The notes under the pieces: model-generated | The model's database searches: none | The model's input: the letters and a program-made list of their open reading frames with translations, nothing else | What the model was told of the DNA's origin: nothing | From: a virus | Lineage: Duplodnaviria > Caudoviricetes | Direction: 5' to 3' (one strand) | DNA length: 64,000 bases | IMG/VR virus record: IMGVR_UViG_3300013212_000088 | Location: 64,001-128,000 of that record | Part shown: positions 8,664 through 63,055 of the stretch, in pieces | How the letters are laid out: each line of letters opens with the position of its first letter | Position numbering within the stretch: the stretch's first letter is position 1 | Position numbers and translations under genes: made by a program

Positions 8664-9605
8664 ATGGCCTTTCCTGGTTCCCTTACTAGATCAGAGATAG
8701 CTTCCGGCTTATTAGTCAGAAGTGTCAAGATAAATGGTAATTACTTATTAGTAGAAAATTGCAGCATTAATCAAGTCCAAGAAATAGATATGAATTCTTT
8801 GTATCTTCAAGGGGGACCAGGAAGCGCTATTGCAAATATTGGTGCTAAAAAATATGAAGGTGATATTTTATTTTTTATACGAGTTGATAGAGATAACGTT
8901 TTAGATCCCGCAGTTCAAGCAATATTAAGACATGCTGAATCTCCAATGTCAGGACTAACATTGGACACTAATCATCTTCTTTCTCACTTTGATATTACAG
9001 CTGAGGATGGTGCAACAGACAATAATGAACTCTTGTCAATAGATCAGTTAGTAATTAAAAGTCTAACTATTTCAGCTAATGAAAATGATTATGTTAAAAT
9101 ATCTGCTTCTTTTCAAGGAATGATTGATACCAGAGCTTCTTCTGATTATGCAGTACCAGATGAAAATCATGTGTTAGGTAGGTCTTTATCCTGGGGTGAC
9201 TGTAATGCAAGCAGATATCAATCTTCCATGCGCACAGTTTCTAATTTTGAACTAACTATAAATAATGAACTGGAATCGCTATCATTTCTTATGGCTGGAG
9301 ATTTAGCTGGAGTAAATAGATCAGATCAAATATCATTAATTAGTGTAAAATCTGTCAAGTGGGCTGGAGAATACTCAGAAATACTTCGTAAAGGCATGGA
9401 ATTAGAAACAGCTATACATGGTGGATGGATGGTTGATGAAAACTTAACCTTTACAATAGGACCAATTACTGCATCTTATAGAATACCTTTATTTCAAAAA
9501 TCAGAGCTACCACTATCTGCAAAAATGTTGATTAGGAAAGTAAAATGGAATGCTATGATTAATCCATCAGCTCCGTTAAAGCAAGGTGGATTATTTACAA
9601 TTTAA
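8664..9605 (+). CDS. Tail-tube-like structural protein (paralogue of 9699-10724)
   Basis: N-terminus aligns by eye with the next gene (SVKING..L.VE......YLQGGP..AIANIG vs SIKVSG..YVAE......YIQGSP..RVLNIG); beta-rich, probably two tandem domains. Confidence 0.45.
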   Translation: MAFPGSLTRSEIASGLLVRSVKINGNYLLVENCSINQVQEIDMNSLYLQGGPGSAIANIGAKKYEGDILFFIRVDRDNVLDPAVQAILRHAESPMSGLTLDTNHLLSHFDITAEDGATDNNELLSIDQLVIKSLTISANENDYVKISASFQGMIDTRASSDYAVPDENHVLGRSLSWGDCNASRYQSSMRTVSNFELTINNELESLSFLMAGDLAGVNRSDQISLISVKSVKWAGEYSEILRKGMELETAIHGGWMVDENLTFTIGPITASYRIPLFQKSELPLSAKMLIRKVKWNAMINPSAPLKQGGLFTI

Positions 9606-9610
9606 GAATA
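9583..9610 (+). promoter_or_regulatory. Phage-specific promoter AAGG-N18-AGAATA
   Basis: AAGG tggattatttacaattta AGAATA, a perfect motif copy upstream of the 341-aa gene. Confidence 0.65.
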
Positions 9611-9639
9611 AAATAACAACATTTCAAATGAATGTATTA

Positions 9640-9667
9640 AAGGGAAAATTTGCATCATAAGAGAAAG
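9640..9667 (+). promoter_or_regulatory. Second, tandem copy of the phage-specific promoter (AAGG-N18-AGAAAG)
   Basis: AAGG gaaaatttgcatcataag AGAAAG, intergenic, 31 nt before the ATG at 9699. Confidence 0.45.
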
Positions 9668-9698
9668 TAAAATTATATTGGTTTAAGGGAGAATTATT

Positions 9699-10724
9699 AT
9701 GCCTCTAAATAATAATCTATTTGGTGTTTACAAGTCAATCAAGGTAAGCGGTCGTACATATGTAGCTGAAAGTGCAAACAGAAACGTGAGCATGGAAGTT
9801 GATGCGAAGAACTATATCCAAGGTTCTCCAAAAGCTCGTGTTCTTAACATTGGTGGAACAAAAGAAAGTATTTCCATTACATCACCAATTCTTGTAGGCG
9901 CTGGATCTGCTGTTGACGGAAGAGAATTGGCCAACACCAAAATTAATGAGATTTTGGACCCAAACTCTGCTACACTTCCAGTCCTTGAAAGTGCCGTTTA
10001 CAAAGTTAGCCCAGACGGTGCTTCTGTATCTATCACATTAAAATCTGATGGTGATCCTGGTGATCCAACTTCAACAGCAACAAGGCCTTTTGAAGTTTCA
10101 GGTAGAGAAATTGAAGAGCTTAAGCCTGGATTTGGTGCTCAACCATCTAGAGTTGCAAGATTCTATGACTTCCGTGTTCAAATTGGTTTCAGAAAGTTCT
10201 TCATTCTTGAAGCTGAAATTACAGTTGCTGCAACTACCACAGAAGCTTACTTCTTAGTACCTTACAACACAATCAACGATGGTAACCCTGCTTATATCCA
10301 AGGCCCATCTGGTTCTGGTACAATTACAGCTGGTTATCAATTCCCATTCCTTGGTATCTCTGGTATTAAGATTACTGGAAAGGGCAAAGCTGCTGTTATC
10401 CTTAGAGATATTCCAGGTACTGCACACTACGGTGACTACTACTTCTTCGATTACTACGGTGGTGAAACCGTTGGAACCGACGAATCTATCAACCTTGGTC
10501 TTTCAAGAGGACAGTCTGACCTTACATTCCAAAGACCTGGTGAATCAGTTGCAGAAGCTCAAAGTTTCCGCCTTGAAATCTTCGATGGCCTTACTGACAA
10601 TGCGTGGGAATCACTTCTTCCAGTTTCAATTGATACCTCCAAGTCTGTTGTTTCTACTTCAAACTTCTCCGTAACAACTGGTCTTCTTACCGTTGACTTC
10701 GACTTCTACTGCTGGGTTCAATAA
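9699..10724 (+). CDS. Probable major (high-copy) tail structural protein, tail-tube-like
   Basis: Codon choice is shifted to TTC/TAC/AAC/ATC/GAC relative to neighbours; tandem promoters upstream and a strong terminator downstream; paralogue of 8664-9605. Confidence 0.55.
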   Translation: MPLNNNLFGVYKSIKVSGRTYVAESANRNVSMEVDAKNYIQGSPKARVLNIGGTKESISITSPILVGAGSAVDGRELANTKINEILDPNSATLPVLESAVYKVSPDGASVSITLKSDGDPGDPTSTATRPFEVSGREIEELKPGFGAQPSRVARFYDFRVQIGFRKFFILEAEITVAATTTEAYFLVPYNTINDGNPAYIQGPSGSGTITAGYQFPFLGISGIKITGKGKAAVILRDIPGTAHYGDYYFFDYYGGETVGTDESINLGLSRGQSDLTFQRPGESVAEAQSFRLEIFDGLTDNAWESLLPVSIDTSKSVVSTSNFSVTTGLLTVDFDFYCWVQ

Positions 10725-10745
10725 TCTAGCTGCAGAAATGCTTAT

Positions 10746-10775
10746 AAAAAAACCTCCCGAAAGGGAGGTTTTTTT
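10746..10775. terminator. Bidirectional rho-independent terminator
   Basis: AAAAAAA-CCTCCC-GAAA-GGGAGG-TTTTTTT between convergent genes. Confidence 0.9.
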
Positions 10776-11286
10776 ATTCTCTAGTCCAATCTACAATAAA
10801 CTCTTCATAATTCCAGTCATCGTAAGGATCTATTTTATCCCAAGTTTCTTTGACGACATAAAAGTTTAGTTTATTAAGTATACTCATAATTAAGCCATCA
10901 ACTATACTACATATTGAATAATATCTTCTGTGTTTTGAATCGATGTAATGTAGGGTGCAATATAAAATATCACCCACTTTCGATTCTAACACTACTTTTT
11001 CAATTGAAGAATTATTATCTTTTAAATGTTTATTGAATATTTGATAAATCGTATGTATATGAGAGTTTTTGTGTAAACTTTTAAAGAAAAATGAGAGCAT
11101 TGACCCTTCATATGCATTAAGAATTATTGCAACATCTTTATCATCACCCTCAAGTAAAGCATACATTTTACTTTCAGGGCTTATTAAAATGTGCTGTAAG
11201 TCAACTCTTAAAAGGCTTAACTCTTCAATATCATTTAAGTTTTTTGCCTTTATAGTTATTTTTTTGTTTGGTAAATCTTCCATCAA
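10774..11286 (-). CDS. Divergent bifunctional nuclease-like protein (DUF151 family)
   Basis: YALLEGDDKDVAIILNAYEG.ML...HTIYQIF......IEKVVLE...ILYCTL...CSIVDGLIMS..NKLNFYV parallels the DUF151 pattern, but the family D-x-R-P-S-D motif reads ICSIVD. Confidence 0.6.
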   Translation of the reverse strand: MMEDLPNKKITIKAKNLNDIEELSLLRVDLQHILISPESKMYALLEGDDKDVAIILNAYEGSMLSFFFKSLHKNSHIHTIYQIFNKHLKDNNSSIEKVVLESKVGDILYCTLHYIDSKHRRYYSICSIVDGLIMSILNKLNFYVVKETWDKIDPYDDWNYEEFIVDWTRE

Positions 11287-11687
11287 TGATTACAGCCTTC
11301 ATTTTTACAAGGCTTGCAGCTACCACAAAGTTTATTGTTTAAATAATGAGATGCAGCTACTAAAAATGAACCAAATACTAACACGACAGTAAATAGATCT
11401 ATTTCAAAACCATGAACTGATGAATGACTATGCTGTAATTTTCCAATAACAATTAACATGATTCCAGAACTTAAATAGGCAAATGTTTTTAATGATTTAT
11501 GCTTCCTATACCCAAAACATAAACTGCTAACACCTAAGATTGCTGAAAATACAAGTAGCCCCCATTCGAATGTTTCACTTACAAAAAGAGACAGACCAAA
11601 TACTGGGACTAATGTTATTACCAAAGGCATAACTAAGCAATGAATAGCGCATGAAACGCTCGAAAACATACCTACTTTATCTATCAT
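11283..11687 (-). CDS. MerC-family metal-binding membrane protein
   Basis: DKVG...S.SCAIHCLVMP in TM1, four hydrophobic helices, GYRKH loop, HSHSSVH loop, ASHYLN, and a Cys/His tail CGSCKPCKNEGCNH. Confidence 0.8.
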   Translation of the reverse strand: MIDKVGMFSSVSCAIHCLVMPLVITLVPVFGLSLFVSETFEWGLLVFSAILGVSSLCFGYRKHKSLKTFAYLSSGIMLIVIGKLQHSHSSVHGFEIDLFTVVLVFGSFLVAASHYLNNKLCGSCKPCKNEGCNH

Positions 11688-12301
11688 TTTAATTGGTAAC
11701 TCTTTCTATGAAAATGCTGAAGACCATGTTCAGCAACAGCTTCTTTATGTTTAGCAGTAATATAGCCTTTATTGCTTATCAAATCATACTCTGGATGTTC
11801 TTCATGCAATTTAGCAAGAACTCTATCATGATGTACTTTAGCAATTATACTAGCTGCAGCTACAGCTAATGAAGTTGAATCTGCTTTAGGTATCATCAAT
11901 TGAGGTTTTAAATTATTCTTGGGACCTTGATCAATTACATATAAATGAGGTAATTCATCTATATATTTGGTTGCTTTAGATGCTGCGCTTACCATTGCAT
12001 TTAAATTAGCTTCTTGTATGCCAATTTTGTCTATATCTTCTGCGGATATTTCAGTCACTCCATAAGAAATACAGCTAGTAATAATTCTATCGTAAAGCTC
12101 TTCTCTTTTCTTCTGGGTAAGTTTTTTAGAATCATTGACCCCTTCTAAAGTTTGTCTTTCATCTAAAACCACACAAGCAGCAACTAAGGGACCAGCTAAA
12201 GATCCACGGCCACATTCATCAATTCCAGCAATATATTTCCCGTATTTGAGCCTAAGTTCATCATCAAATTTTTTTAATTCAATATATGCTTGTGATTTCA
12301 T
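11684..12301 (-). CDS. rnhB: Ribonuclease HII
   Basis: IAGIDECGRGSLAGP, DSKKL, VIDQG, KADSTS..VAAASIIAKV..D, NKGY.T..H, HRKSY. Confidence 0.93.
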   Translation of the reverse strand: MKSQAYIELKKFDDELRLKYGKYIAGIDECGRGSLAGPLVAACVVLDERQTLEGVNDSKKLTQKKREELYDRIITSCISYGVTEISAEDIDKIGIQEANLNAMVSAASKATKYIDELPHLYVIDQGPKNNLKPQLMIPKADSTSLAVAAASIIAKVHHDRVLAKLHEEHPEYDLISNKGYITAKHKEAVAEHGLQHFHRKSYQLK

Positions 12302-14064
12302 TGCATTTCTTTCTTTGCTTTATCATGTATTTTTTTAGTCAAGAAATCAATAAGTTCTTTTCCAGATTCTACAAGGGAACTTAACAATTCAATATTTTCT
12401 GAAAAATAATCAGATTCAATGCTTTCTCTTAAATCATTAAGTTCTTTAATCTCATCACTATTTAATAATTTAGTATCAATCAATTCAAACAATTGGATTT
12501 TTAAAGATGTAAGCCAATCTCTCAACGAAGTTATTAATTTAAATCTTTCATCTTCAATTTTATTTTCTTCAGCGTCAAGTAACATTTTAGTCATTTCTTC
12601 TTCAGATAATGAACCAGATAATACCATGACCTTCTCATTATTGGTAGCTTCATCAATTGCTTTAACAGTTACGATTCCATTTGCATCAACATCAAAAACT
12701 ACTTCAATTTTTGGTGCGCCTCTTCTTACTGGTGGAATATTATCTAGCTTAAATTCACCCAAATAATGATTGTATTTTGTTTGTGGTCTTTCGCCTTGAA
12801 ACACTTTAACATCAACTGAGGTTTGATTATCTTCAGCTGTTGTAAAAACTTCTCTATATTCTGTAGGAACTTGAGTGTTACGTCTAATCATTGCATTCAT
12901 AACACCTCCTAAAGTTTCAATCCCTAAAGAAAGAGGAGTAACATCTAACAAAAATATCATCTTATCTGAATTGCCTGAAAGAACAGAAGCTTGAATTGCA
13001 GCCCCTAATGCTACAGCCTCATCTGGATTGATAGTTTTATTAGGCTTTTTACCAACCCACTCTTGTATTTTTTTAGAAACAAGTGGAATGCGAGTAGAAC
13101 CACCGACAAAAACCACTTCATCAATATCTTTAGCCTTCAAGTTAGCATCGTTAAGTGCTTGTTCAATACAGTCTTTTGTTTTGTTTAAAATTAATGTTAT
13201 TGCGTTTTCAAACTCTTCTCTTGAAACTACTACAGAAAGGTTTACTGGTTGCCTATTTCTGAAAGCAAACATTGGAATATTAACATTAGTGCTTTCTAGT
13301 TGAGATAAAGACTTCTTTGCCTTTTCTGACGCTGTTCTTAGTCTGGATTTTTGTTGATCAGACAAATCTTCTATAAGTTTTTCATTGTAATCATAATCAA
13401 ACTTTAAATTAAACTTATCTAAAATTATCTGACCAAGAATTTTATCAAAATCAGCTCCACCCAAACTAGTGTTGCCTGAAGTAGAAAGTACATGAAAATC
13501 TACTCCGTCAGACAATTTAAGTACTGTTACATCAAAAGTACCACCACCAAGATCATATACTAAAATTGTTGAGTCGTGAGTTTTATCCAGGCCATAAGCT
13601 AGAGAAGCAGCTGTAGGTTCATTAATAATTCGTAAAACATTAAGTCCAGCAAGTTCACCAGCAGCTTTCGTTGCCTTTCTTTCGTCGTTGTTAAAGTAAG
13701 CGGGAACTGTAATTACTGCATCTGTTACTTCCTGTCCTAAATAGTCTTCTGCGTCTCTTTTAAGTTTTTTGAGAATCTCAGCTGATATTTCACATGGAGT
13801 AAATTGTGAGTTATCAAAAACGTAAAGTTTATCGAATCCTGAAGACATTTTACGCTTGACTAGTCTGATTACTCTGTCTGGATTTTCTTCTTCAAAATCA
13901 ACAGCTAAATCACCAACCATGCGTGTAAGATTCTCGTCAATTGCAAAAACCGAGGGTGTGATTCGATTCCCTTCACAATTGGGAATGACTTCAGCTACAC
14001 CATTTTTTACATAAGAAACTACAGAAAATGTACTACCTAAATCTATGCCAATTGAAAGTCCCAT
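12298..14064 (-). CDS. dnaK: Hsp70 chaperone DnaK (short form)
   Basis: IGIDLGST, TVPAYF, INEPTAA, DLGGGTFDV, VGGSTRIP, NPDEAVALGAA, LLDVTPLSLGIET, FQGER. Lacks the ~23-aa subdomain-IB insert and the disordered C-terminal tail. Confidence 0.95.
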   Translation of the reverse strand: MGLSIGIDLGSTFSVVSYVKNGVAEVIPNCEGNRITPSVFAIDENLTRMVGDLAVDFEEENPDRVIRLVKRKMSSGFDKLYVFDNSQFTPCEISAEILKKLKRDAEDYLGQEVTDAVITVPAYFNNDERKATKAAGELAGLNVLRIINEPTAASLAYGLDKTHDSTILVYDLGGGTFDVTVLKLSDGVDFHVLSTSGNTSLGGADFDKILGQIILDKFNLKFDYDYNEKLIEDLSDQQKSRLRTASEKAKKSLSQLESTNVNIPMFAFRNRQPVNLSVVVSREEFENAITLILNKTKDCIEQALNDANLKAKDIDEVVFVGGSTRIPLVSKKIQEWVGKKPNKTINPDEAVALGAAIQASVLSGNSDKMIFLLDVTPLSLGIETLGGVMNAMIRRNTQVPTEYREVFTTAEDNQTSVDVKVFQGERPQTKYNHYLGEFKLDNIPPVRRGAPKIEVVFDVDANGIVTVKAIDEATNNEKVMVLSGSLSEEEMTKMLLDAEENKIEDERFKLITSLRDWLTSLKIQLFELIDTKLLNSDEIKELNDLRESIESDYFSENIELLSSLVESGKELIDFLTKKIHDKAKKEMQ

Positions 14065-14071
14065 ACAATAA

Positions 14072-14077
14072 ATTATA
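14072..14077 (-). promoter_or_regulatory. -10 box placing the dnaK ATG at about +1 (leaderless)
   Basis: The minus strand reads tgTATAATttattgtATG; no SD upstream of dnaK. Confidence 0.45.
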
Positions 14078-14079
14078 CA

Positions 14080-14436
14080 TTATTCGGGATTTTCATCAGG
14101 TAGCACAGTTCCTCCAGGCTTATAACCCTCCATTAATGAATGCAATACATCAGACTCTTCAAGTCTTTTTTGCATATTTTTAATTTCGTTTTTAGTTATA
14201 GGCTTTTCAGAGTTGATCATTGAAGGGTCTCTGTGTAAGGAACTTTTGTACTCATGAGCCATAGAAATTAATTGGACAACAGCAAAAGTGTCCTTACATT
14301 TTACACAACGCATGACAGCATATATCTCCACTTCTGATTTAGGAAGCCAACCTAAATGTGACTCCCTAAAGAATGGATGTTTGCAAGTTCTATTAAGACA
14401 ATTTTTTGGCTTTCCAACAATGGTTTGGTGATGCAT
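14080..14436 (-). CDS. Hypothetical Zn-finger protein
   Basis: CLNRTC ... RCVKC cysteine pairs; AGGCAGGT SD-like site. Confidence 0.7.
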   Translation of the reverse strand: MHHQTIVGKPKNCLNRTCKHPFFRESHLGWLPKSEVEIYAVMRCVKCKDTFAVVQLISMAHEYKSSLHRDPSMINSEKPITKNEIKNMQKRLEESDVLHSLMEGYKPGGTVLPDENPE

Positions 14437-14470
14437 AGTATACCTGCCTATAAGATGCTGATTCTTTTAA

Positions 14471-14498
14471 TATTCTATTTCAATAAGAGTAATTCCTA
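14471..14498 (-). promoter_or_regulatory. Phage-specific promoter TAGG-N18-AGAATA
   Basis: Minus strand TAGG aattactcttattgaaat AGAATA, 34 nt upstream of the ATG at 14436. Confidence 0.65.
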
Positions 14499-14527
14499 AG
14501 GTTAAAAAGTATTACTTATGGTATATT
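14498..14527 (+). promoter_or_regulatory. Divergent promoter for the sORF and 243-aa gene
   Basis: AAGG-N18-GGTATA, which can also be read as an extended -10 TGgTATATT; shares the palindrome CCTAAGG with the minus-strand promoter. Confidence 0.45.
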
Positions 14528-14530
14528 ATA

Positions 14531-14545
14531 AACAGTAGTACTGTT
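14531..14545. repeat. Operator-like inverted repeat at the predicted start site
   Basis: AACAGTA-G-TACTGTT (7-1-7 perfect). Confidence 0.5.
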
Positions 14546-14608
14546 CATTGTCGAGCATTATTCTTCCAAAGATGGTTTGTTTGAAATCTATTTAAGGAGG
14601 TATTGGCA

Positions 14609-14680
14609 ATGAATATACTTAGAGACATCGAGCAACTCTTTACAACTGTATTTGAGACTCTTTTCAAATTCGAGTTATAA
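14609..14680 (+). CDS. Unannotated 23-aa peptide MNILRDIEQLFTTVFETLFKFEL
   Basis: Perfect SD AAGGAGGT 7 nt upstream of the ATG; stop 2 nt before the ATG of the next gene; absent from the ORF track because of its length. Confidence 0.6.
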   Translation: MNILRDIEQLFTTVFETLFKFEL

Positions 14681-14682
14681 TT

Positions 14683-15414
14683 ATGAAAAACGCTATTGTA
14701 TACTCTTGTTTTTTAACAGGCAAATGGTATTCATTAGTATCTAATCAGCTAACTAAAATCTTCTCCTCCAAAACAGTGTTGAATGGAGGAGATCTTTTTA
14801 TTTGTGCTTCTGGTACTGAAGAAGAATACAAAAAACTACTTGAAATTATTGGTGAAAATAAAGCTGTTGTTTCTTATCATCCAGACACTAAATATGGGTG
14901 CGAGGCATATGGTTTTAAGAAGATGCATGAAATAAGCAAAGAAGGTTATGACTACATTTGCTTTATGCACAGCAAGGGTGTTTCCAGATTAAAAGATCCA
15001 ATGCCAGTAATTATAACTATAAATACTTGGCGAGCTTGTATGGAATATTTTGTTTTAGATAGAGCGGATGATTGTATTTCAGCATTACAAAACTTAAACA
15101 AAAACTGCGCCGGTGTGATGTTAGATGTTTTGAATTGGTTTAACGAAGATATAAGTTTTGAAAAATCTGTCTCGCATTATCTCTGGGCAATATTTCCAGG
15201 TAATTTCTTCTGGGTTAAATGTTCGTGGTTTTCTGAACAAAAAGAGCCTACATTTGAAGAAGACAGATATGAATATGAAAGATTTTTAGGAACATGTAAT
15301 GAAATAAACCCCTACTATATCTGGATTAAAAAATACTCAGAAGTAGGGGCTCATATGTCTTATTTTGAACCAATATATGAACAAGAATACAAAGATGAAG
15401 TAAAGCTTATTTAA
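14683..15414 (+). CDS. Putative glycan-modifying (glycosyltransferase/RgpF-like) protein
   Basis: YICFMHSKG, WRACMEYFV, GNFFW and DRYEYERFLG resemble a viral family related to rhamnan-synthesis proteins (from recall only). Confidence 0.45.
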   Translation: MKNAIVYSCFLTGKWYSLVSNQLTKIFSSKTVLNGGDLFICASGTEEEYKKLLEIIGENKAVVSYHPDTKYGCEAYGFKKMHEISKEGYDYICFMHSKGVSRLKDPMPVIITINTWRACMEYFVLDRADDCISALQNLNKNCAGVMLDVLNWFNEDISFEKSVSHYLWAIFPGNFFWVKCSWFSEQKEPTFEEDRYEYERFLGTCNEINPYYIWIKKYSEVGAHMSYFEPIYEQEYKDEVKLI

Positions 15415-17212
15415 TTGCAAACATCTTCCATGCTCTTTCATTTCTATAAACCTTTTTTCTCATTAAGCAGTGAGTTTTAAGGTTTTTTTGTTCAGGTAAA
15501 AAATCAATAATAACTGCATCGGGTTTACCATTTGCTACAGATTGTTCAATGTCTTTACCAACACATCTTAATACTCTTCCTACCTGTTGATAAGTGGTGA
15601 CAGAAGATTGATTTGAACCTGCTAAAATTAATACTGAAATCTTGGGTGCGTCAACTCCAACGTTTGCCCATTGAGTAGCGATTAAAACAATTTCATTATT
15701 TTCAACAGCATTAAGCATCCTTCGACGATAATTCTTTTCCTCGTCAGTTGGGTCATCAACACCTTTATCTCCACCAGGAACGAAAACAGAATCTTCTATC
15801 AATCCTTCCAATAAGAATCCATGTTCTCTTCTCTCTACAAGAATAATCGTGGGTCTTTTAGCTTCTTTAAATGCTTCTGCAAATTGTTTAATTCTAAAGT
15901 TTCTTTCCCAATTATTAACAATATTATTTAAATAAATATCTGCGTAAGTATCACCATCATGAACTTCAGCTACATTACAAACAAATATCTTGGGTGGTAC
16001 TAAATACCCTAGCTCAATCAAATCACTCGCACTGACATCAATAATTTTTCTGCCTAAAGTGCCTTCTATTCTGATTTCTTGATTGTCCATTCTCCACGGG
16101 GTACCAGATAGTCCTAAGCGGTAATATGCCTTAGTAGCATAAGAACCTAACTCTTGAATAACTACTGACGCTACATGTGCTTCATCAACTATAAAAGCCT
16201 GACAAGAACCAATGAGATTTCTCACTTGACTTTTTTGAAATAATACTTCTTGTCGATTATCCCAAGCAATTTGAGCTTTCTTGTATACTGCTAAATCAAC
16301 TTTAATTAATGAGTTAAGCTCTTTGTTAAATTGCTTTTCTAATGCCAAAGCAACTGCAGCATAAGTTTTTTTCTTTTTAGATTCAGATTCATTTAAAGCT
16401 ATTTCTGAAGCTTTTTTCATATCCAAAGACAGCTTGCTTAATTCTCTTCTTGCATTATTTTCTGAGATCTTCCATTTATTTAAAGCTTCATCTAATTCTT
16501 TTTGGAGCTGAACAGTTGTTTTTGGGCCATCTACATTAGGATCATCAATAACTTTATTCCCTTTTTCAATGTATTTTTTATCAAATGCATTTAATGCTGT
16601 TTGGTAAGTGACAACATTAATACCTTCTAAATTAATGTTGCATAAACCACCACCAGCAATGCCAACTTTGACAGGCTTACCATCAAATCTTAAATATCTT
16701 TCAAACTCTTTTTGTGTTTGTTTAAGAAGTTCAATTGCTGGTACTATAAAAATTACTGGGCTTACTCCAAGATTTTCAAATATCTTGCAAGAAGTCATAG
16801 TTTTACCCGCACCAGTACAAAGGGATAACATTCCTCTTTGCGTTTTACGTGCTAAAATTGCAGCATTCTCTTGATAAAATCTTAATTGTTTGCCATCAAA
16901 ATCACAAGTAACAGGGTAATTACGTTCTGGTTTTTTTCTAACATCAATTACTTCATGTTCAATTTTGAGAGAATTGAATAATTTTCTTATTCTTCCAGTT
17001 AATCCTGATGGAAAGGATTGTGTTCTTTTATTGTAAAGAGATATCTTTCCATCCCACTGTCCTTGTTTAAACTTCTGAGACCATTCAGCTGAAGGGACTT
17101 CATAAGACAATTCAGTCCTAATTGCATCATGTAAATTATTATTTACAGCAAACTCATTGTGCAAGTTGCCAACAAGCTTGCCAAATGAATTATCAACTTC
17201 TATTTTGACCAT
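15407..17212 (-). CDS. Superfamily 2 DNA helicase (UvsW/ResIII-like)
   Basis: Q-motif LRFYQ, Walker A CTGAGKT, VPAIELLKQ, TYQT, DEAH, GLSGTP, NVGVDAP, QQVGRVLR; N-terminal WDGKI.LY typical of phage UvsW-like helicases. Confidence 0.9.
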   Translation of the reverse strand: MVKIEVDNSFGKLVGNLHNEFAVNNNLHDAIRTELSYEVPSAEWSQKFKQGQWDGKISLYNKRTQSFPSGLTGRIRKLFNSLKIEHEVIDVRKKPERNYPVTCDFDGKQLRFYQENAAILARKTQRGMLSLCTGAGKTMTSCKIFENLGVSPVIFIVPAIELLKQTQKEFERYLRFDGKPVKVGIAGGGLCNINLEGINVVTYQTALNAFDKKYIEKGNKVIDDPNVDGPKTTVQLQKELDEALNKWKISENNARRELSKLSLDMKKASEIALNESESKKKKTYAAVALALEKQFNKELNSLIKVDLAVYKKAQIAWDNRQEVLFQKSQVRNLIGSCQAFIVDEAHVASVVIQELGSYATKAYYRLGLSGTPWRMDNQEIRIEGTLGRKIIDVSASDLIELGYLVPPKIFVCNVAEVHDGDTYADIYLNNIVNNWERNFRIKQFAEAFKEAKRPTIILVERREHGFLLEGLIEDSVFVPGGDKGVDDPTDEEKNYRRRMLNAVENNEIVLIATQWANVGVDAPKISVLILAGSNQSSVTTYQQVGRVLRCVGKDIEQSVANGKPDAVIIDFLPEQKNLKTHCLMRKKVYRNERAWKMFAIK

Positions 17213-17221
17213 AGCATAAAT

Positions 17222-17230
17222 ATTCTATCA
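17222..17230 (-). promoter_or_regulatory. Extended -10 promoter for the helicase
   Basis: Minus strand TGaTAGAAT, 9 nt before the ATG, just downstream of a terminator; no SD. Confidence 0.45.
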
Positions 17231-17237
17231 TAAAAAC

Positions 17238-17267
17238 AAAGAAACGGGAAATATTTCCCGTTTCTTT
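17238..17267. terminator. Rho-independent terminator formed by a perfect 30-bp palindrome
   Basis: AAAGAAACGGGAAAT|ATTTCCCGTTTCTTT, with T-rich runs following on both strands. Confidence 0.8.
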
Positions 17268-17283
17268 TCTGCATTAGGTAATT

Positions 17284-17733
17284 TTATTCAGGATCAGTAA
17301 ATGACATAGAATTAAACTTGTTTACAGCTACCGCAATAGCTTTTGGCTTTTTGCCTATAAACATATCAAGTGTACTCATGACAAGTGTTTGAATGTTTTC
17401 AACATCTGAGTCTGACAACTCAATGCCTTGATTTACAGCAGCCAAACGAATAAACCTTACAAATTGCTCGACTCTGTCTTCGTTAGAAAACTCACCATCT
17501 TTAATTTGTTCTAGCCCTTCAATCCAAGCGTCTACAAGCATAATGCCCTTTCTGCCTAGTTTTACTGCTAATACTGACCTAATTACGATCAAGGTTTGCA
17601 ATGCGACTTTTGTATCATTTGGTGCACTTCTTGAAAGTAGAAACAAAGCGACCATTGAAATAATACAAAGCATCCCGATTACTAATAGGCCTTGCCAGTT
17701 AGTAAGTAAAGAAGTTATTTGTGAAAGTTCCAT
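17284..17733 (-). CDS. Membrane protein, possibly an LL-H-type holin
   Basis: One N-terminal TM helix (GLLVIGMLCIISMVALFLL) followed by amphipathic helices and GIELSDSDVENI. Start moved to the ATG at 17733 (AAGGA SD, 2 nt after the upstream stop). Confidence 0.4.
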   Translation of the reverse strand: MELSQITSLLTNWQGLLVIGMLCIISMVALFLLSRSAPNDTKVALQTLIVIRSVLAVKLGRKGIMLVDAWIEGLEQIKDGEFSNEDRVEQFVRFIRLAAVNQGIELSDSDVENIQTLVMSTLDMFIGKKPKAIAVAVNKFNSMSFTDPE

Positions 17734-17735
17734 TT

Positions 17736-17948
17736 TTAACAATCCTTAGCAACTACATCATCGCCTTCATCAGACGAATCAAGGTCAAGATCAACATCAA
17801 GAGTTAGGGGAATTACAAGCTCGTCCTTAATTGGTTCTTGCTTCTTTTCATCTGCCCAAACCACTCCTTCATTAGATGCAACTACTTCGTCACCTTCAGC
17901 ATCTGTAAACTTCTCAATCTTGCCTGTGGCCCTCTTAATCATTGCCAT
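17736..17948 (-). CDS. Small acidic hypothetical protein
   Basis: GAGG SD; acidic C-terminus DVDLDLDSSDEGDD. Confidence 0.65.
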   Translation of the reverse strand: MAMIKRATGKIEKFTDAEGDEVVASNEGVVWADEKKQEPIKDELVIPLTLDVDLDLDSSDEGDDVVAKDC

Positions 17949-17959
17949 AATTTTTTACC

Positions 17960-18934
17960 TCAATTATTTAAAGTAGAAACATATTTAGAAAGAATATCTT
18001 CCTGTTCTGCAGTTAAACTGTTAGGATAATTATACAGAAAAGTAATAACAAACTCTCCCCTTGAAGAATCTGGTCTTGGGATACCTTCATTTTCAAACTT
18101 GAGTAAACTATCTAATCTTGTAAGCTTTTCAACCGTAACTTCTTTTTCAACGCCATTTGGAAATTTGATATTTTTCTTTGTTCCAACTAAAGCTTCAATC
18201 GGGTTTAACGAAAGCTTATAAAATATATTACCCTGGTTATCGAAATCAAAATCTGGATGCGGATTTAAATTAAACTCTACGATAGCTTTACCAGGCGGTT
18301 GGTTAGGATTTTCTTGATTACCGCCATCAGGAATTATAATTGCAGAGAAAACTTGGCCTAATTTTAAATGTAATGGTCTTTGGATAGTTTCATTTACAAG
18401 TCCATTTGCATGACATTGTCCACAAATAACATCTAATTTCCAACCCCTACCTCTACAATCATGACAAGGGCCAAGTATCTGTTCAAAAAAGAAGCCAGCA
18501 TGTTGCATTGTGTGCTTGTTCTGTCCAGATCCCATACATGTTCTACAAACCTGTTTAGCGCCAGAACCACCTTCACCCTTACAAGATTTACAAAAAACTC
18601 TTCTCTGGTACATAACATTTTTTATATCTTCTTTAAAAAGATCTTCTAATGACAAATTAACCTTAAGAGTTATAGGGCTGTTGAAAGATTGTGTTTTTAC
18701 TACGTTCCAAGAGTCGAAAGGGTTGTGATGCTGAGGAGGTTGGTCGTATCTACTTTTTGAATTGGGATCACTTAATACAGAATAAGCTTCATTAATTTGC
18801 TTAAACTTGTCCTCGGCATCTGGTTCTTTATTGACATCAGGATGAAACTTTTTGGATAGATTTCTGTAAGCTGATTTTATTTCGTCAGAAGTTGCGTTTC
18901 TACCAACTCCTAAAATTGCATAATGATCTTGCAT
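17960..18934 (-). CDS. dnaJ: Co-chaperone DnaJ (J-domain, Zn-finger, C-terminal domain)
   Basis: DHYAILGV, KFHPD, AYSVLSD, four CxxCxG/AxG repeats and a C-terminal GIP..GEF motif; the G/F-rich region is essentially absent. Confidence 0.93.
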   Translation of the reverse strand: MQDHYAILGVGRNATSDEIKSAYRNLSKKFHPDVNKEPDAEDKFKQINEAYSVLSDPNSKSRYDQPPQHHNPFDSWNVVKTQSFNSPITLKVNLSLEDLFKEDIKNVMYQRRVFCKSCKGEGGSGAKQVCRTCMGSGQNKHTMQHAGFFFEQILGPCHDCRGRGWKLDVICGQCHANGLVNETIQRPLHLKLGQVFSAIIIPDGGNQENPNQPPGKAIVEFNLNPHPDFDFDNQGNIFYKLSLNPIEALVGTKKNIKFPNGVEKEVTVEKLTRLDSLLKFENEGIPRPDSSRGEFVITFLYNYPNSLTAEQEDILSKYVSTLNN

Positions 18935-18940
18935 ACTTAA

Positions 18941-18948: not shown

Positions 18949-18950
18949 GG

Positions 18951-19631
18951 TTATCTATTTATTTTATTAAGTAAATCTATGATCTTGTTAGATGGGCAAG
19001 CCGCATTCTCACCAACCCCAACATCAGCATGTTGTCCTGTTACGCCCATCACGCAACCTGCAACTGTTCCGTCAGTGAGAACTAGCATTCCGCCAGAAGA
19101 TCCCTCAAGAATATCTGCATCGAAAAACAAAATATCTTGCCATGCCAAACTTGGAGCTTGTTCACCTAATGCTTGGTGAACATTAGTAATTCTTCCAACT
19201 GTAGCAGTGTCATGAAAACCCTCTGGAGATCCTAAAACTGCAATAATATCTCCAACTTCTACTGTGTCAGAGTTGGCAAGTTTCACAGCTGGGATGGTTT
19301 TGGCAATAGGTGTAGATAAAACAATTCCAGCATCATAATTTGGATCGGATATTTGAATTACCGCTGGATATAAACTTTCACCATCAAAGGATACTTTAAT
19401 CTCATGAGGTTTTTTTGTCAATATTGGAGGCACAACATGAGAGGCAGTGACTATGTAACCTTCCCCTACATGAAAACCACTACCAGTCCAACTTTGATCT
19501 CCAGCATCTACATAAATAGTGCAAGAAGACTGAATTGCTGTTTGAATAATTTTCTTTACAGGGTCTTCAATCTTTTGCCCTAACTTCATTCTCCATGCAA
19601 GAGAATCAGCGTTGAATGAAAACAAACTCAT
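18951..19631 (-). CDS. Trypsin-like serine protease (S1, HtrA-like core without PDZ or signal peptide)
   Basis: GSGF, VTASHVV (His), YDAGIV (Asp), LGSPEG, DADILEGSSGG (Ser). Confidence 0.85.
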   Translation of the reverse strand: MSLFSFNADSLAWRMKLGQKIEDPVKKIIQTAIQSSCTIYVDAGDQSWTGSGFHVGEGYIVTASHVVPPILTKKPHEIKVSFDGESLYPAVIQISDPNYDAGIVLSTPIAKTIPAVKLANSDTVEVGDIIAVLGSPEGFHDTATVGRITNVHQALGEQAPSLAWQDILFFDADILEGSSGGMLVLTDGTVAGCVMGVTGQHADVGVGENAACPSNKIIDLLNKINR

Positions 19632-20089
19632 TTATTTATAACCTTGTACATGATAACAGATTTTTGAACTGCTCCGAATCTTCTTGAGTCATCTGAGTTT
19701 TCAGAATTATCTCCAAGCACATAAACATAACCCCTAGGAACAACATGCTTCATTACTAAAAAATTATGATTACCTTCATAATACTTTTCAGCCATTACTC
19801 CTATATGTTGATCAAATACTTCAACTTTTTCAGAATTAAAACTCATCAAAGAATAATAAACATCATTTTCAACAAACTTTATTCTTTTTATAATAGTTTC
19901 GTTATAATCATTCTTCAAAACAACAATATCATTTAAAGAAAAATTATTAGTTCTTACTGCCAAAAGTAATTGATTATTTTTGAGGCTAGGTAACATAGAA
20001 TTACCAATAACCACAACTACTTTAAAAGGTATAGCCCATAAAGTTAAAACTACTAACAAACAAACAATTAATTTGATATATTTTCTCAT
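19628..20089 (-). CDS. lepB: Signal peptidase I (S26)
   Basis: N-terminal TM anchor, GNSMLPSL (Ser), IIKRI (Lys), VLGDNSENSDDSRRFG. Confidence 0.88.
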   Translation of the reverse strand: MRKYIKLIVCLLVVLTLWAIPFKVVVVIGNSMLPSLKNNQLLLAVRTNNFSLNDIVVLKNDYNETIIKRIKFVENDVYYSLMSFNSEKVEVFDQHIGVMAEKYYEGNHNFLVMKHVVPRGYVYVLGDNSENSDDSRRFGAVQKSVIMYKVINK

Positions 20090-20152
20090 TGCACTTCTCC
20101 TATTTGCAGAAGAAGAGCTTAAAGATTTTTGTTTTTTGCCTTTTGGCTCTTT

Positions 20153-21172
20153 TTAAATTAATTTCTCTGGTAATGGCTGTGGATCCTCAACTATTTGAGT
20201 AACGACAGACGCCTTATAATGATCTGGATTAATATTAGCAAAATTAGGAACGCCGTATCCCCATTGTTTAATATCACCAGCAGTTATAAAAGGACTATCA
20301 TCAGCTACAGTTTTTAAAGCTTGCATCATCTCAATGTAATTCTTGATTAATGGTACACCTGCAGTTTTTCTTGAGTATGATAAAAGTAAAGCGCAAATAC
20401 CAGCCATGAAAGGTGATGCTTGGCTTGTTCCTGACATTTTTGCATAACCATTGTTGAAGTGTGTTGAGTATATGTCAACACCAGGCACAGCTCCATCAAC
20501 TTCCTGACCTCTAGAAGAAAAGTGTGCCAAATTACCATTTTTGTCTAAAGCAGCTACAGCTATAACTTCATCATAATGTGCTGGATAATTAACTTTTCCA
20601 GAATCATTACCGGCAGCTGCAATAATAATGATGCCTTTAGAAACAGCTTCTTTAATTAAATTATGAATCTCTCTTGGCGGTTCTGAAGGAGCGCCTAAAG
20701 ACATGTTGATAATATCGCAATTGGCATCGATAGCAAATCTTAAACCTTTTGCAATTGCTTCATATGATCCAGAGCCATCACTATTTAAAACCTTGACTGG
20801 CAATATGTGGCAACCAGGAGCAACGCCTACAATGCCTCTGCCATTTTCTCTCGCAGCAATGATACCTGTAACGTGAATGCCGTGACCGCTTCCATTGTCA
20901 AGTCCAGTACCTTCGCTTGTAGCATCAAGCATAGTTCCCCAAACTTTCTCTAAATCGTTATGCGGTACGATGCCAGTATCTAAAACACCAATTAAAATGC
21001 CTTCACCTTTAGAATATTGCCAAAACTTTTCAATATTACAGGTCATCATTCCCCAATCTTTCTTCTCTCCATCAGAAAGAGAAGTCATAACATGGGTAAC
21101 TTTCAAATCCTCTTCTGGAATAAAGTCTAATTGATCTTTAAGGGAAACTTTTTCTCTTTCGATTGCTGCCAT
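20153..21172 (-). CDS. Subtilisin-family serine protease (S8), intracellular (ISP-like)
   Basis: VLDTG (Asp), HGIHV.GII (His), AAAGN oxyanion Asn, GTSQASP (Ser); no signal peptide, short N-terminal extension containing FIP. Confidence 0.92.
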   Translation of the reverse strand: MAAIEREKVSLKDQLDFIPEEDLKVTHVMTSLSDGEKKDWGMMTCNIEKFWQYSKGEGILIGVLDTGIVPHNDLEKVWGTMLDATSEGTGLDNGSGHGIHVTGIIAARENGRGIVGVAPGCHILPVKVLNSDGSGSYEAIAKGLRFAIDANCDIINMSLGAPSEPPREIHNLIKEAVSKGIIIIAAAGNDSGKVNYPAHYDEVIAVAALDKNGNLAHFSSRGQEVDGAVPGVDIYSTHFNNGYAKMSGTSQASPFMAGICALLLSYSRKTAGVPLIKNYIEMMQALKTVADDSPFITAGDIKQWGYGVPNFANINPDHYKASVVTQIVEDPQPLPEKLI

Positions 21173-21203
21173 TTTCTTAATCTCCTTGAAATACTATATA
21201 TAA

Positions 21204-21232
21204 TATTCTGAATGCAAGCAGATTAAATCCTA
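21204..21232 (-). promoter_or_regulatory. Phage-specific promoter TAGG-N19-AGAATA
   Basis: Minus strand TAGG atttaatctgcttgcattc AGAATA upstream of the S8 gene (AAGGAG SD). Confidence 0.55.
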
Positions 21233-41782: not shown

Positions 41783-41826
41783 TTAGAGCACCATGTTATA
41801 TTTTTTTGGGAGATCTTTAATGAAAT

Positions 41827-41854
41827 TATTCTCGTAAAAGAACTCTTAACCCTT
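41827..41854 (-). promoter_or_regulatory. Phage-specific promoter AAGG-N18-AGAATA
   Basis: Minus strand AAGG gttaagagttcttttacg AGAATA in the only sizeable intergenic gap of the tail block. Confidence 0.65.
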
Positions 41855-46780: not shown

Positions 46781-46782
46781 AA

Positions 46783-53921: not shown

Positions 53922-53922
53922 T

Positions 53923-59271: not shown

Positions 59272-59295
59272 TAGTTGTGTTATACGTTAGAGAAT

Positions 59296-61656: not shown

Positions 61657-61658
61657 AA

Positions 61659-61838
61659 TTAATCTTTTGCTATAATTTTATAAGTAGATGTTGAGCAGTG
61701 AGGACATTTGCCATGCAAAGCATTCCTGGAACTCTTCATAGTAACAACTTTTGGTCCAGTAACTGTGACCATAGTTCTACATTTTACACAGTACATAGGA
61801 TGCGTTTTTGTAGCATCTTTAATTTCGGTATCAGCCAT
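61659..61838 (-). CDS. DUF5679-like Zn-ribbon protein (59 aa, not in the ORF track)
   Basis: MADTEIKDATKTHPMYCVKCRTMVTVTGPKVVTMKSSRNALHGKCPHCSTSTYKIIAKD; AGGAG SD; YCVKC...MK..R.A..G.CP.C.T pattern. Confidence 0.8.
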   Translation of the reverse strand: MADTEIKDATKTHPMYCVKCRTMVTVTGPKVVTMKSSRNALHGKCPHCSTSTYKIIAKD

Positions 61839-61859
61839 TTTAAATAACTCCTAAAGTTT

Positions 61860-61886
61860 TATTATTAATTTTTGTACAAATACCTT
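61860..61886 (-). promoter_or_regulatory. Candidate phage-specific promoter at the head of the 46-kb minus-strand block (AAGG-N17-ATAATA)
   Basis: Minus strand AAGG tatttgtacaaaaatta ATAATA, 21 nt before the ATG at 61838. Confidence 0.45.
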
Positions 61887-61901
61887 TGAGGATTAGCTTC
61901 A

Positions 61902-62252
61902 ATGCCCAGGTATGAATACTGTTGTAAATGTGATGGAAGTGAAAAGAAATTCACAGTCAATATTTCATTTAATGAATATTCTCCAGAAATTCCTTGCCCT
62001 TGTGGTGCAGAAAATGGTTTGGCAATGAGAGTTTTTACAACTTTTGCCGTTCAAGAAGGTCGCACTGCTAATGAAATTAAGTTTGGCACTACTAATAAGA
62101 GAAAGCAAATGGCTGATTTTATGAAAGATCAAAAACAAGTTAGAAAAAAATCTTATGCTGCTGATACTCGAGAAGCTAAATCAAACGAAATATGGACAGG
62201 CAAGGAAGGCTTAGACGGTATAACATCTTTACCTATTAATAAGGACAAGTAA
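61902..62252 (+). CDS. FmdB-family zinc-ribbon protein
   Basis: MPRYEYCC.C....F......E.....PCPCG......RVF; GAGG SD. Confidence 0.75.
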   Translation: MPRYEYCCKCDGSEKKFTVNISFNEYSPEIPCPCGAENGLAMRVFTTFAVQEGRTANEIKFGTTNKRKQMADFMKDQKQVRKKSYAADTREAKSNEIWTGKEGLDGITSLPINKDK

Positions 62253-62253
62253 C

Positions 62254-63030
62254 ATGGAAGAACCAGAATCATTTATTATTCAAAACGTCACTATGAATTA
62301 TCAATATATTAGTGATATCAGACTTCAATTGGATCCACTACAAGTTGAAGATCTAACATGGTGGGAATCTAAAGTTGTTAAGGCATCTAGAGACCTAAAG
62401 GAAGCACTGCGTAGAGGTGTTTTACGACAAATCACTCAGACAGAATGGGATTCTAAACTAGAAAAGCAAGCTGCTAAAGAAAGAAGAGAACTTTCTTTAA
62501 ACACTAAACAAGAGAGAATTAAGACCATCGAAACCGAAGATGGAAAGCAATTTGAAGCTGAATCTATTGATGCCGAAAAGCCTTATAGCAAAGAAGCTGA
62601 ACTTAACACTGCTGGTTATGCAAATGATTCTCTTTCTTACACCATTGCTTTAGAAACTGCTCAGGTTCAAGCTGAGTTAAATGGTGAAGAGCTTACTGTA
62701 GAAGACTTTGCTGAAAGAGTAGAGCGTGATCCAACATTAGTTGCTAGGCTTCTACGACAACAAACAGGCGCAGTCACATCTGGTACCACTCGTCAATCAA
62801 GAGCATTTGTAGCTCAAGCTCCTGAACTTGGTAGATCTGAGACTACTGTTGCTGGAATGAAAATGTCTAACATGCAACGAGATGGATATATTGCAGGCGG
62901 AGATTTTAATTACACTGCTAAACCAAATGATGATTTTGGTTTTGATAGTGATCCTTCTATTGCTGAAGAAATTGACCTTGAAGTGGATTCTTTAGGGGAT
63001 GATGAAAAGGGCTCAATCAGAAGACTCTAG
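62254..63030 (+). CDS. Hypothetical phage protein (258 aa, acidic C-terminus)
   Basis: Starts 1 nt after the upstream stop; N-terminal I.NVT...YISDIRLQLDP...DL...S.DLKEALRRG.L domain. Confidence 0.7.
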   Translation: MEEPESFIIQNVTMNYQYISDIRLQLDPLQVEDLTWWESKVVKASRDLKEALRRGVLRQITQTEWDSKLEKQAAKERRELSLNTKQERIKTIETEDGKQFEAESIDAEKPYSKEAELNTAGYANDSLSYTIALETAQVQAELNGEELTVEDFAERVERDPTLVARLLRQQTGAVTSGTTRQSRAFVAQAPELGRSETTVAGMKMSNMQRDGYIAGGDFNYTAKPNDDFGFDSDPSIAEEIDLEVDSLGDDEKGSIRRL

Positions 63031-63055
63031 AAAAATTGTAATAAGACTTAAGCTT

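Follow-up and report, generated by a model that had tools for sequence, protein, structure and literature searches.

A probable SigH-like promoter motif in an uncultivated jumbo phage, most likely read by the phage's own sigma factor

The two-box motif AGG-N18-AGAA recurs with rigid spacing, on the sense strand, upstream of genes in a 261-kb uncultivated jumbo-phage record (G000) and in two distant relatives (G001 and G004). It is probably a phage promoter class read by the phage's own SigH-like sigma factor, a reading that draws on sequence comparison and to which we give a probability of about 70%. The sigma gene co-occurs with enrichment of the motif, and all three examined genomes carry it. 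The system is most likely a real but ordinary phage gene switch made from an unusual part.

The window analysed comprises 64,000 nucleotides, bases 64001-128000 of the G000 record. Its DNA had no megablast match among cultured phages, and a terminase protein search returned only relatives at ≤26% identity, so G000 has no cultured stand-in. G000, G001 and G004 were compared as whole genomes, with 109, 257 and 160 upstream regions, respectively. Single-protein locus searches yielded near copies only, and an alignment used as query gave 16 relatives of the leader gene of the Hsp70 operon. All spaced dyads in the upstream regions were scanned without bias, with correction for about 1.8 million dyad-by-spacing tests and with the mean over spacings 8-25 as background. 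The scan replaced a home-made EM search (ZOOPS, width 30) of upstream regions, which converged on noise. Plain k-mer enrichment gave nothing beyond the ribosome-binding site and A/T-rich words, and AGAATA by itself was not enriched (95 observed, 81 expected).

AGG-N18-AGAA was the top-ranked dyad of G000. Of 109 upstream regions, 14 carry it, where spacings 8-25 average 1.24 (Poisson p = 7e-11; corrected, about 1e-4). The spacing peak lies at exactly N18 in all three genomes, with 10-14 against 0-3 at other spacings in G000, 23 of 257 regions against 0-5 in G001 (p = 5e-15), and 10 of 160 regions against 0-4 in G004 (p = 9e-6). The peak is sharp, and N17 and N19 are at background as classes. 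The initial annotation had named upstream frequency relative to coding or shuffled sequence as a check on its motif, and the comparison falls in its favour: in G000 the motif is 25-fold commoner in upstream regions than in coding DNA, shuffled upstream regions yield 1.05 matches against 15 observed, and 15 upstream matches are sense and 1 antisense. Orthologous genes have the motif in common above chance (6/14 vs 11/107, Fisher p = 0.005). It is the only two-box motif jointly enriched in G000, G001 and G004; a search for further shared two-box motifs, as candidates for the other factors, found none in all three.

The pattern originally proposed was longer, WAGG-N18-AGAATA. It stands as an excess, with three exact matches in the window against 0.34 expected (three were reached in 1 of 100 shuffles) and five in the 261-kb genome, where a reversed control pattern gave none. 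The conserved core is shorter, AGG-N18-AGAA, or AGG-N19-GAA in a looser form. With one mismatch allowed, the 10-base pattern is at chance level in the window (13 vs 14.3 expected), and no single-base variant of the 7-base core was enriched in G000. AGG is the enriched left box in all three genomes. A follows it in 19 of 49 sites, which makes this base a preference only. GAA is needed in the right box, where substitutions within G, A, A were never enriched; A ahead of it is strongly preferred in G000, T follows it in only 12 of 49 sites, and the sequence 3′ of it is rich in A/T. With seven fixed bases the motif holds little information and about 1 in 15 upstream matches is expected by chance, so single sites are not callable from sequence alone.

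A sigma-70-family gene encoding 242 aa lies at genome positions 195117-195845 on the reverse strand, 67 kb beyond the window end; a gene of this family had been predicted to lie elsewhere in the genome. Its product has SigH models as its five best NCBIfam matches (E 7e-33 to 2e-25), which span positions 7-196 out of about 200. Their E values beat the generic sigma-70/ECF superfamily model (E 1.5e-14) by about 11 orders and the next named subfamily (SigB/F/G, E 7e-8) by about 18. Pfam domains Sigma70_r2 and r4_2 are present, and the best PDB match is the sigma-H factor 3mzy (E 3e-16), aligned through the region-4 helix. Scores of 104-114 bits lie under the curated NCBIfam SigH cut-offs of 208-414, so the protein is SigH-like and not an equivalog. 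The gene is located among replication genes and is kept in G001 and G004 at 57% and 77% identity. Large phage contigs hold hundreds of close homologues, which bear the JGI label sporulation-specific sigma; a 50,697-record collection of cultured phages gave no convincing homologue. G000 has a second verified sigma-70-family gene, for a 184-aa ECF/SigF-like sigma (191340-191894). A 329-aa protein (204042-205031) is without a Pfam or NCBIfam match, and two verified sigma genes are therefore counted. No motif was found upstream of sigma genes or clamp-loader genes. The initial annotation had supposed that its promoters, middle or late, are read by a phage-encoded sigma from outside the window. The SigH-like gene, its conservation in the two relatives with the same motif enrichment, the match of the boxes to the SigH consensus and the kinds of gene behind the motif support this. 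With two sigma genes in the genome, only family resemblance ties the motif to this one.

Four predicted SigH-type promoters in the window are supported by relatives in which the boxes are kept while the spacers diverge. They are the four full matches of the initial annotation, whose site coordinates and sequences proved correct, and all four lie 32-89 nt from a start codon on the same strand, near it as had been described. The site at 9583..9610 (+) is an exact match, with AGG at 9584-9586, AGAA at 9605-9608 and a predicted +1 A at 9619. It precedes a 341-aa gene (9699-10724) that adjoins tail-like genes. Its -35 box and spacer fall in the final codons of the tail-tube-like gene 8664-9605, and conservation here, as at position 63007 below, is confounded by protein constraint. 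G002 (73% aa identity) and G001 (43%) both retain the boxes at N18. The codon preceding the Gly codon always ends in A, though the residue varies (Q/L/T), and AGAATA is kept both as coding and as post-stop sequence. The site at 41827..41854 (-) is an exact and fully intergenic match (AGG 41853-41851, AGAA 41832-41829, predicted +1 A at 41818), and G002 and G003 retain its boxes and N18. It heads a giant-protein unit consisting of 37739-41782 (1347 aa) and then 971-, 1467- and 3056-aa genes; the 971- and 3056-aa proteins carry Ig-like 'virion structural / head decoration' domains. An N19 site at 21204..21232 (-) (AGG 21231-21229, AGAA 21209-21206, predicted +1 A at 21195) precedes the S8 subtilase gene 20153-21172, and its -35 box shares bases with the TAG stop codon that ends the 3056-aa gene. 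G002 retains the site with N19; upstream of the G001 orthologue it has N18.

The fourth site, at 14471..14498 (-), is again exact and fully intergenic (AGG 14497-14495, AGAA 14476-14473, predicted +1 A at 14462). Behind it lies a chaperone operon with a 118-aa Cys-rich gene (14080-14436), Hsp70 (12298-14064), RNase HII (11684-12301) and two small genes. The boxes and N18 recur in G002, in G001 and in a further relative (L061), where the spacers are unrelated. Just upstream, a sigma-70-like promoter is predicted from its consensus match at 14525..14554 (-) (TCGACA-18-TATAAT, 11/12 consensus), and its TCGACAATGAA box is also found in G002. The two sites possibly form a tandem early/late arrangement. 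In 11 of the 16 relatives of the leader gene the motif is absent and a terminator and a TATAAT-like site are found, which indicates that promoter use shifts between lineages. These absences count against universal conservation of this site and not of the class, because G004, of the same group, has the genome-wide peak.

Further matches are doubtful. The initial annotation also listed six near matches, two of which fit the core. The one at 63007..63034 (+) is AGG-N18-AGAA with a predicted +1 at 63043, and its function is uncertain. It lies within the last codons of gene 62254-63030, ahead of a 354-aa gene starting at 63103, with a G+C-rich hairpin and T run (terminator) about 15 nt 3′ of 63043. 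G003 (81% aa identity) has it at the same place; in G001, on our reading of the frames, the match lies 6 nt off in the protein alignment, so its position is not conserved. The other, at 9640..9667 (+), is probably a chance match; its AGAA is lost in G002 and missing from G001, and it is the sole one of 15 G000 sites without A at +1. A core match that had not been listed, at 20163..20187 (-), is probably due to chance or lineage-specific. It falls within the 3′-terminal part of the subtilase gene, with the S26 peptidase gene 19628-20089 starting 74 nt further on, and neither G002 nor G001 has it. The remaining near matches, at 653, 14498 (+), 47024 and 61860 (N17), lack GAA, show no motif conservation in relatives and are not supported; 61860..61886 (-), with no GAA at the right distance, is not a SigH-type site. 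Positions 61860..61886, in the divergent intergenic region 61839-61901, are a conserved block, AAAGGTATTTGTACAAAAA, that contains the palindrome TTTGTACAAA. The block is kept in G003, and TGTACA was found again in further divergent intergenic regions.

The transcription start is most likely a purine, mostly A, 11 nt 3′ of AGAA. Of 15 G000 sites, 14 have A at position +35 from AGG; across 49 sites in the three genomes this position is A in 31, G in 9, T in 9 and C in none. Start codons lie 34 to 123 nt from the motif. ATG lies exactly at the predicted start position in three genes, as it would in leaderless messages, and some targets of the motif may be expressed in this way.

In the proposed mechanism, AGG(A) would serve as the -35 box and (A)GAA as the -10 box. 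The phage SigH-like sigma would direct host core RNA polymerase to these sites, with transcription starting at the purine 11 nt past AGAA. The sigma gene itself sits among replication genes and lacks such a promoter. The four supported sites would turn on the gene beside the tail-like genes, the Hsp70 operon, the subtilase and the giant virion-like proteins, with expression presumably middle or late. Outside the window the motif precedes a head-protease fusion adjoining the portal gene and the gene directly after terminase. The targets had been described as mostly the heads of structural units. This is only partly right: besides the giant-protein operon, the units in the window comprise the Hsp70 operon, the subtilase gene and an unknown gene beside the tail-tube-like gene, so they are not only structural. 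Replication genes such as topoisomerase have sigma-70-like TTG...TATAAT sites instead of the motif. None of the four supported sites was among the matches of a sigma-70 consensus scan of the window (TTGACA-N17-TATAAT, both hexamers at 16-18 nt spacing), which taken overall showed no excess over shuffles and is uninformative.

The sites could be real promoters read by a SigH-type sigma of the host, if the host belongs to the Bacillota, with the phage sigma having some other role, for example interfering with host sporulation or competence. The boxes do match the cellular sigmaH consensus, and phage 'sporulation-type' sigma genes are treated in the literature as host-manipulating and non-essential (bioRxiv 10.1101/2021.11.12.468384; PMC12484599). 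We consider this unlikely, since the phage sigma is kept at 57-77% identity across all three motif-bearing genomes, has its many close homologues on large phage contigs, and sits in the replication module, as expected of a timing switch. A comparably improbable reader is another phage factor, either the ECF/SigF-like sigma or the 329-aa protein. Both genes are kept in G001, where the motif also stands in front of the ECF-like sigma gene, which implies that a cascade exists in some form. However, the consensus boxes of ECF, SigF/G, SigB and FliA-type factors are unlike AGG and GAA, Pfam and NCBIfam find no sigma domain in the 329-aa protein, and the SigH likeness of both sigma and motif would be a coincidence if another factor read it.

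Somewhat less probable still is that the boxes form a regulator binding site or an RNA signal for processing or translation. An RNA-level signal would also give strand bias. Against it, the two boxes are asymmetric, with a free spacer that separates them by about two helical turns, AGG and AGAA cannot form compensating pairs, and a purine is conserved at a fixed distance downstream while the distance to the start codon is variable; together these favour a sigma-70-family promoter over a dimeric operator or RNA structure. The low information of the motif and the chance-level frequency of its one-mismatch variants would suit a chance origin, with a purine-rich pattern clustering at random in intergenic DNA rich in A+T. 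This reading is refuted by the spacing controls, with a spacing-specific peak in three genomes beside the shuffle and strand counts, and we regard it as negligible. The preferred reading is a promoter class read by the phage's SigH-like sigma.

Such a class would give a sequence-level handle on gene timing for a large group of uncultivated giant phages, in which a 7-base, fixed-spacing signal marks non-early transcription units, each with a predicted start site. Phage Hsp70/DnaJ chaperones and several proteases would share a regulon with head and virion genes. A gene labelled 'sporulation-specific sigma factor' would be reassigned to the phage's own programme, which matters for virome annotation. 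More tentatively, it is conceivable, though we lean against it, that uncultivated freshwater jumbo phages of a widespread clade control their assembly through a co-opted SigH-family sigma whose targets include Hsp70/DnaJ, proteases and giant virion proteins. Elsewhere the SigH family is associated with sporulation and competence in Bacillota. If this were true, annotated phage 'sporulation' genes would be late-gene switches, and in hosts other than Bacillota a SigH-type factor would work with a foreign core polymerase.

The closest known promoters are those of Bacillus SigH (Spo0H), with the consensus -35 RNAGGAWWW and -10 RNNGAATWW (DBTBS, quoted in PMC8510167). Both have AGG(A) at -35, GAA at -10 and A/T-rich sequence 3′ of GAA. 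In the phage motif the A of AGG and the G of GAA are 22 nt apart, which would put it at the long end of the 21-22 nt (to the G of GAAT) of Bacillus SigH promoters. The phage sites keep the T of GAAT (12/49) and the A of AGGA (19/49) weakly, and the phage genome favours A before GAA. Bacillus SigH serves a sporulation and competence regulon, whereas the predicted SigH dependence here belongs to a lytic-type jumbo phage.

Re-aiming of host polymerase by a phage sigma is a textbook mechanism, exemplified by SPO1 gp28 and gp34 and T4 gp55 (bioRxiv 10.1101/2021.11.12.468384). The logic proposed here is that of SPO1 gp28 (middle) and gp33/34 (late) and of T4 gp55, in which an earlier-made phage sigma reads boxes before later genes. 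The G000 sigma belongs to the SigH branch, and the SPO1 and T4 sigmas to the gp28, gp34 and gp55 clades. The boxes of SPO1 and T4 differ from AGG and AGAA. SP10 g120, SPO1 gp2.21 and phage G gp300 are annotated, like the homologues of the G000 sigma, as sporulation-specific sigma factors, and are reported to be non-essential and to act on host sporulation (bioRxiv 10.1101/2021.11.12.468384; PMC12484599). Unlike these Bacillus-phage genes, the G000 sigma is accompanied by a matching promoter set before the phage's own assembly genes, which argues for a role in the phage's own programme.

The two-box motif AGG-N18-AGAA appears to represent a genuine and conserved class of phage-specific promoters, and its most likely reader is the phage's own SigH-like sigma factor. 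The virus record is a single sequence of 261,424 bp with an estimated completeness of 73%, and no close cultured phage was found when window DNA and the terminase protein were compared against cultured phages. The window has 27–37% G+C, tight gene packing and clear Shine-Dalgarno sites. It encodes a split type II topoisomerase (1944–6585), a tail-tube-like gene with a weak match (8664–9605), RNase HII (11684–12301, −), a full-length Hsp70/DnaK (12298–14064, −; Pfam E = 1e-176), a helicase (15407–17212), a DnaJ with J, Zn and C-terminal domains (17960–18934, −), a trypsin-like protease (18951–19631, −), an S26-type signal-peptidase-like peptidase (19628–20089, −) and an S8 subtilase (20153–21172, −). 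Nine consecutive ORFs of 786–3056 aa follow (21230–61656, −), nearly all without a family match; two of them contain Ig-like "virion structural / head decoration" domains. G+C falls to 27% over 52–60 kb, within a 1782-aa ORF and its neighbors. The three unlike peptidase genes lie in series (18951–21172, −), directly downstream of the giant-protein genes. Hsp70/DnaK and DnaJ form a phage-encoded chaperone set (10774–14436, −, and 17960–18934, −). The Hsp70 gene is headed by the gene for a conserved 118-aa protein (14080–14436) with two CxxC-type pairs and no known family, and is followed by the RNase HII gene.

The initial annotation had proposed WAGG-N18-AGAATA as a recurrent promoter with four full and six near matches, and the sequences and coordinates of these sites were confirmed. 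The exact 10-base pattern matches the window 3 times (0.34 expected) and the whole genome 5 times, where a reversed control pattern gives 0. So that this pattern would not be the sole one tested, a dyad scan was performed using whole-genome gene calls and the 125 nt before each gene that is preceded by a gap of 25 nt or more, 109 regions in all. All pairs of 3- and 4-mers at spacings of 8 to 25 were each scored against the same pair at the remaining spacings. The top dyad was AGG-N18-AGAA, found in 14 of 109 upstream regions versus 1.24 expected (p = 7e-11; corrected p ~1e-4 for roughly 1.8 million tests), with a sole peak at N18 in the series from N10 to N27. Upstream regions hold 15 sense copies and 1 antisense copy of the core, its rate there is 25 times that in coding DNA, and shuffled upstream regions yield 1.05 versus 15, so the objection that the motif might be no more frequent upstream of genes than in coding or shuffled sequence clearly fails.

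Changing any one of the seven core bases gave no variant that was enriched in this genome. The 10-base pattern with one mismatch matches the window 13 times versus 14.3 expected, which is chance level, and the near matches therefore carry no weight on their own. Of the proposed AGAATA box, AGAA holds; the TA that follows is a preference and not a requirement. Across 49 sites in three genomes, G is absent just before AGG and C is absent two bases after AGAA. The base 11 nt after AGAA is A in 31 of these sites, G in 9, T in 9 and C in 0, and is A in 14 of the 15 sites of this genome. If the −10 element opens with GAA, this purine is where a sigma-70-family polymerase would be expected to initiate. 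ATG falls exactly at the predicted start base in three genes. Orthologous genes at genome 133563–133600 (window coordinates 69563–69600, outside the window) and at 163383 in the large relative G004 have ATG at the predicted start base, exactly 35 nt downstream of the A in AGG, and have no ribosome site. Genes with ATG at the predicted start base are candidate leaderless messages, a reading that is suggestive only because two of the three are orthologous and the starts are our own calls.

Related contigs were found by protein-anchored searches, and two large ones were taken whole. G001 is 378,848 bp in length, is rated complete and has 40.6% G+C; its comparison with this genome gives 121 reciprocal best hits (median identity 42%). 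G004 is 315,852 bp with 33% G+C. The motif at N18 is found in 23 of 257 upstream regions in G001 versus 0–5 at each other spacing (p = 5e-15), and in 10 of 160 regions in G004 versus 0–4 at other spacings (p = 9e-6). G001 is less strict about the A that precedes GAA, which makes AGG-N19-GAA the common core. In a joint scan, no two-box signal other than the AGG/GAA dyad was enriched in all three. The motif is common to orthologous genes above chance (Fisher p = 0.005). Promoter use shifts between lineages, since 11 of 16 relatives have no motif before the 118-aa leader gene of the Hsp70 operon.

By far the strongest signal in G001 is a long conserved upstream element of about 30 nt, AATCCCC ... 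ATCGGATATA, with about 33–42 copies (L015–L033), probably an early promoter class. None was seen in this genome, the record of which is an estimated 73% complete; the early region may lie in the part that is absent. About 20 upstream regions in G004 (L063–L078) share a repeated hairpin element, a G+C-rich inverted repeat TGGGGT ... ACCCCA with arms 12–16 nt apart.

Site conservation was judged in G002 (55 kb) and G003 (44 kb), two relatives that are colinear with the window and have amino acid identities of 25–91%. Of the ten proposed sites, four are well supported, one is uncertain and five lack support. Transcription from the four supported sites is predicted to begin at 9619 (+), 14462 (−), 21195 (−) and 41818 (−). 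The site at 14471 (−) is intergenic, and its boxes and N18 spacing are kept in G002, G001 and a further relative locus (L061) with unrelated spacers. The site at 41827 (−) is also intergenic; G002 and G003 both retain it, and the spacers have diverged. At 21204 (−) the N19 spacing is kept in G002, and an N18 site precedes the orthologous subtilase gene in G001; N19 as a class is at background level. The site at 9583 (+) is kept in G002 and G001. It overlaps the end of the upstream gene, where the codon before a conserved Gly-Gly always ends in A while the residue varies, and AGAATA is kept both where it is coding and where it lies past the stop codon.

The uncertain site is 63007 (+), which has the core and is retained in G003, but its counterpart in G001 is shifted relative to the protein alignment. 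The site overlaps the end of a gene, and a hairpin with a T run follows no more than about 15 nt past the predicted start; it may be a promoter with an attenuator behind it or a chance match. In 63029–63100 the promoter-like core match comes first, then this strong hairpin with its T run, and next the gene 63103 ribosome site; G003 has the same order. The site at 9640 (+) fits the core and is probably a chance match; its AGAA is lost in G002 and it alone among the 15 sites of this genome has T at the predicted start. Sites 653, 14498 (+) and 47024 have neither GAA nor conservation. The site at 61860 (−) is part of another kind of element, a conserved block with the palindrome TTTGTACAAA at its center. 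A core match at 20163 (−) had been overlooked; it is not conserved and is probably due to chance.

Window targets are the Hsp70 operon, the subtilase, the giant-protein run and a gene of no assigned family after the tail-tube-like gene. Targets outside the window are a 1401-aa protein with a head-maturation-protease domain that adjoins the portal gene, the gene immediately after the large terminase, and an Ig-domain protein. Taken together, these targets point to a regulon that is assembly-related in a broad sense, spanning chaperones, proteases and virion parts. The sites had been placed mostly at the heads of structural units, which holds for the virion parts and is too narrow for the chaperones and proteases.

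Other upstream elements were also found. A sigma-70-like site matching 11 of 12 consensus bases lies at 14554–14525, just upstream of the SigH-type site of the Hsp70 operon, so this operon may be transcribed at early as well as late times. Other genes, such as the topoisomerase, are preceded by canonical TTGACA/TATAAT-type sites. The divergent intergenic region 61839–61901 contains the block AAAGGTATTTGTACAAAAA, which is kept in G003, is centered on the perfect palindrome TTTGTACAAA, and is a candidate operator for a regulator. TGTACA also occurs in the divergent intergenic regions at genome 197413–197680 and 238219–238358. At the record's right end (genome 258000–260300; window coordinates 194000–196300, outside the window), three upstream regions share AAAATC-TA-GATTTTTTTA, after which come an A/T-rich stretch and boxes resembling TAATAAT. 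This looks like another repeated promoter type.

A phage sigma factor had been predicted outside the window, and a whole-record family search identified two sigma-70-family genes. One encodes 242 aa (genome 195117–195845, −) between clamp-loader and adenylosuccinate synthetase genes. Its top five NCBIfam matches are all full-length matches to SigH models (E = 7e-33 to 2e-25), with scores under the equivalog cut-offs, versus E = 1.5e-14 for a generic sigma-70/ECF superfamily model and 7e-8 for the next named subfamily, SigB/F/G. The closest solved structure is sigma-H factor 3mzy (E = 3e-16), aligned through the region-4 helix. The protein is kept in G001 (57%) and G004 (77%). Metagenomic contigs reaching 337 kb in length carry hundreds of homologs with at least 70% identity, which JGI labels "sporulation-specific sigma factor"; no convincing homolog was found in cultured phage records. 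The second sigma (184 aa) is ECF/SigF-like. The motif lies upstream of its G001 copy, which hints at a regulatory cascade; in this genome, neither the sigma genes nor the replication genes have the motif upstream. A third protein (329 aa, genome 204042–205031) has no Pfam or NCBIfam match. The published sigmaH consensus is RNAGGAWWW / RNNGAATWW (PMC8510167). The SigH-like protein is the most likely reader of the motif on the basis of family resemblance and co-occurrence in three genomes.

A jumbo-phage survey described phage-G-type (group 3) phages as without sigma factors (PMC7824862). A later study of phage G reported three sigma-70-like genes and one "sporulation-specific" sigma, the latter read as a host-sporulation gene (PMC12484599). 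Sporulation-type sigma genes were non-essential in Bacillus phage work (bioRxiv 10.1101/2021.11.12.468384). No paper was found that describes both a phage sigma of the SigH type and a set of phage promoters to match it. The mechanism proposed here, in which a phage sigma would read phage promoters, is the same classic one used by SPO1 and T4.
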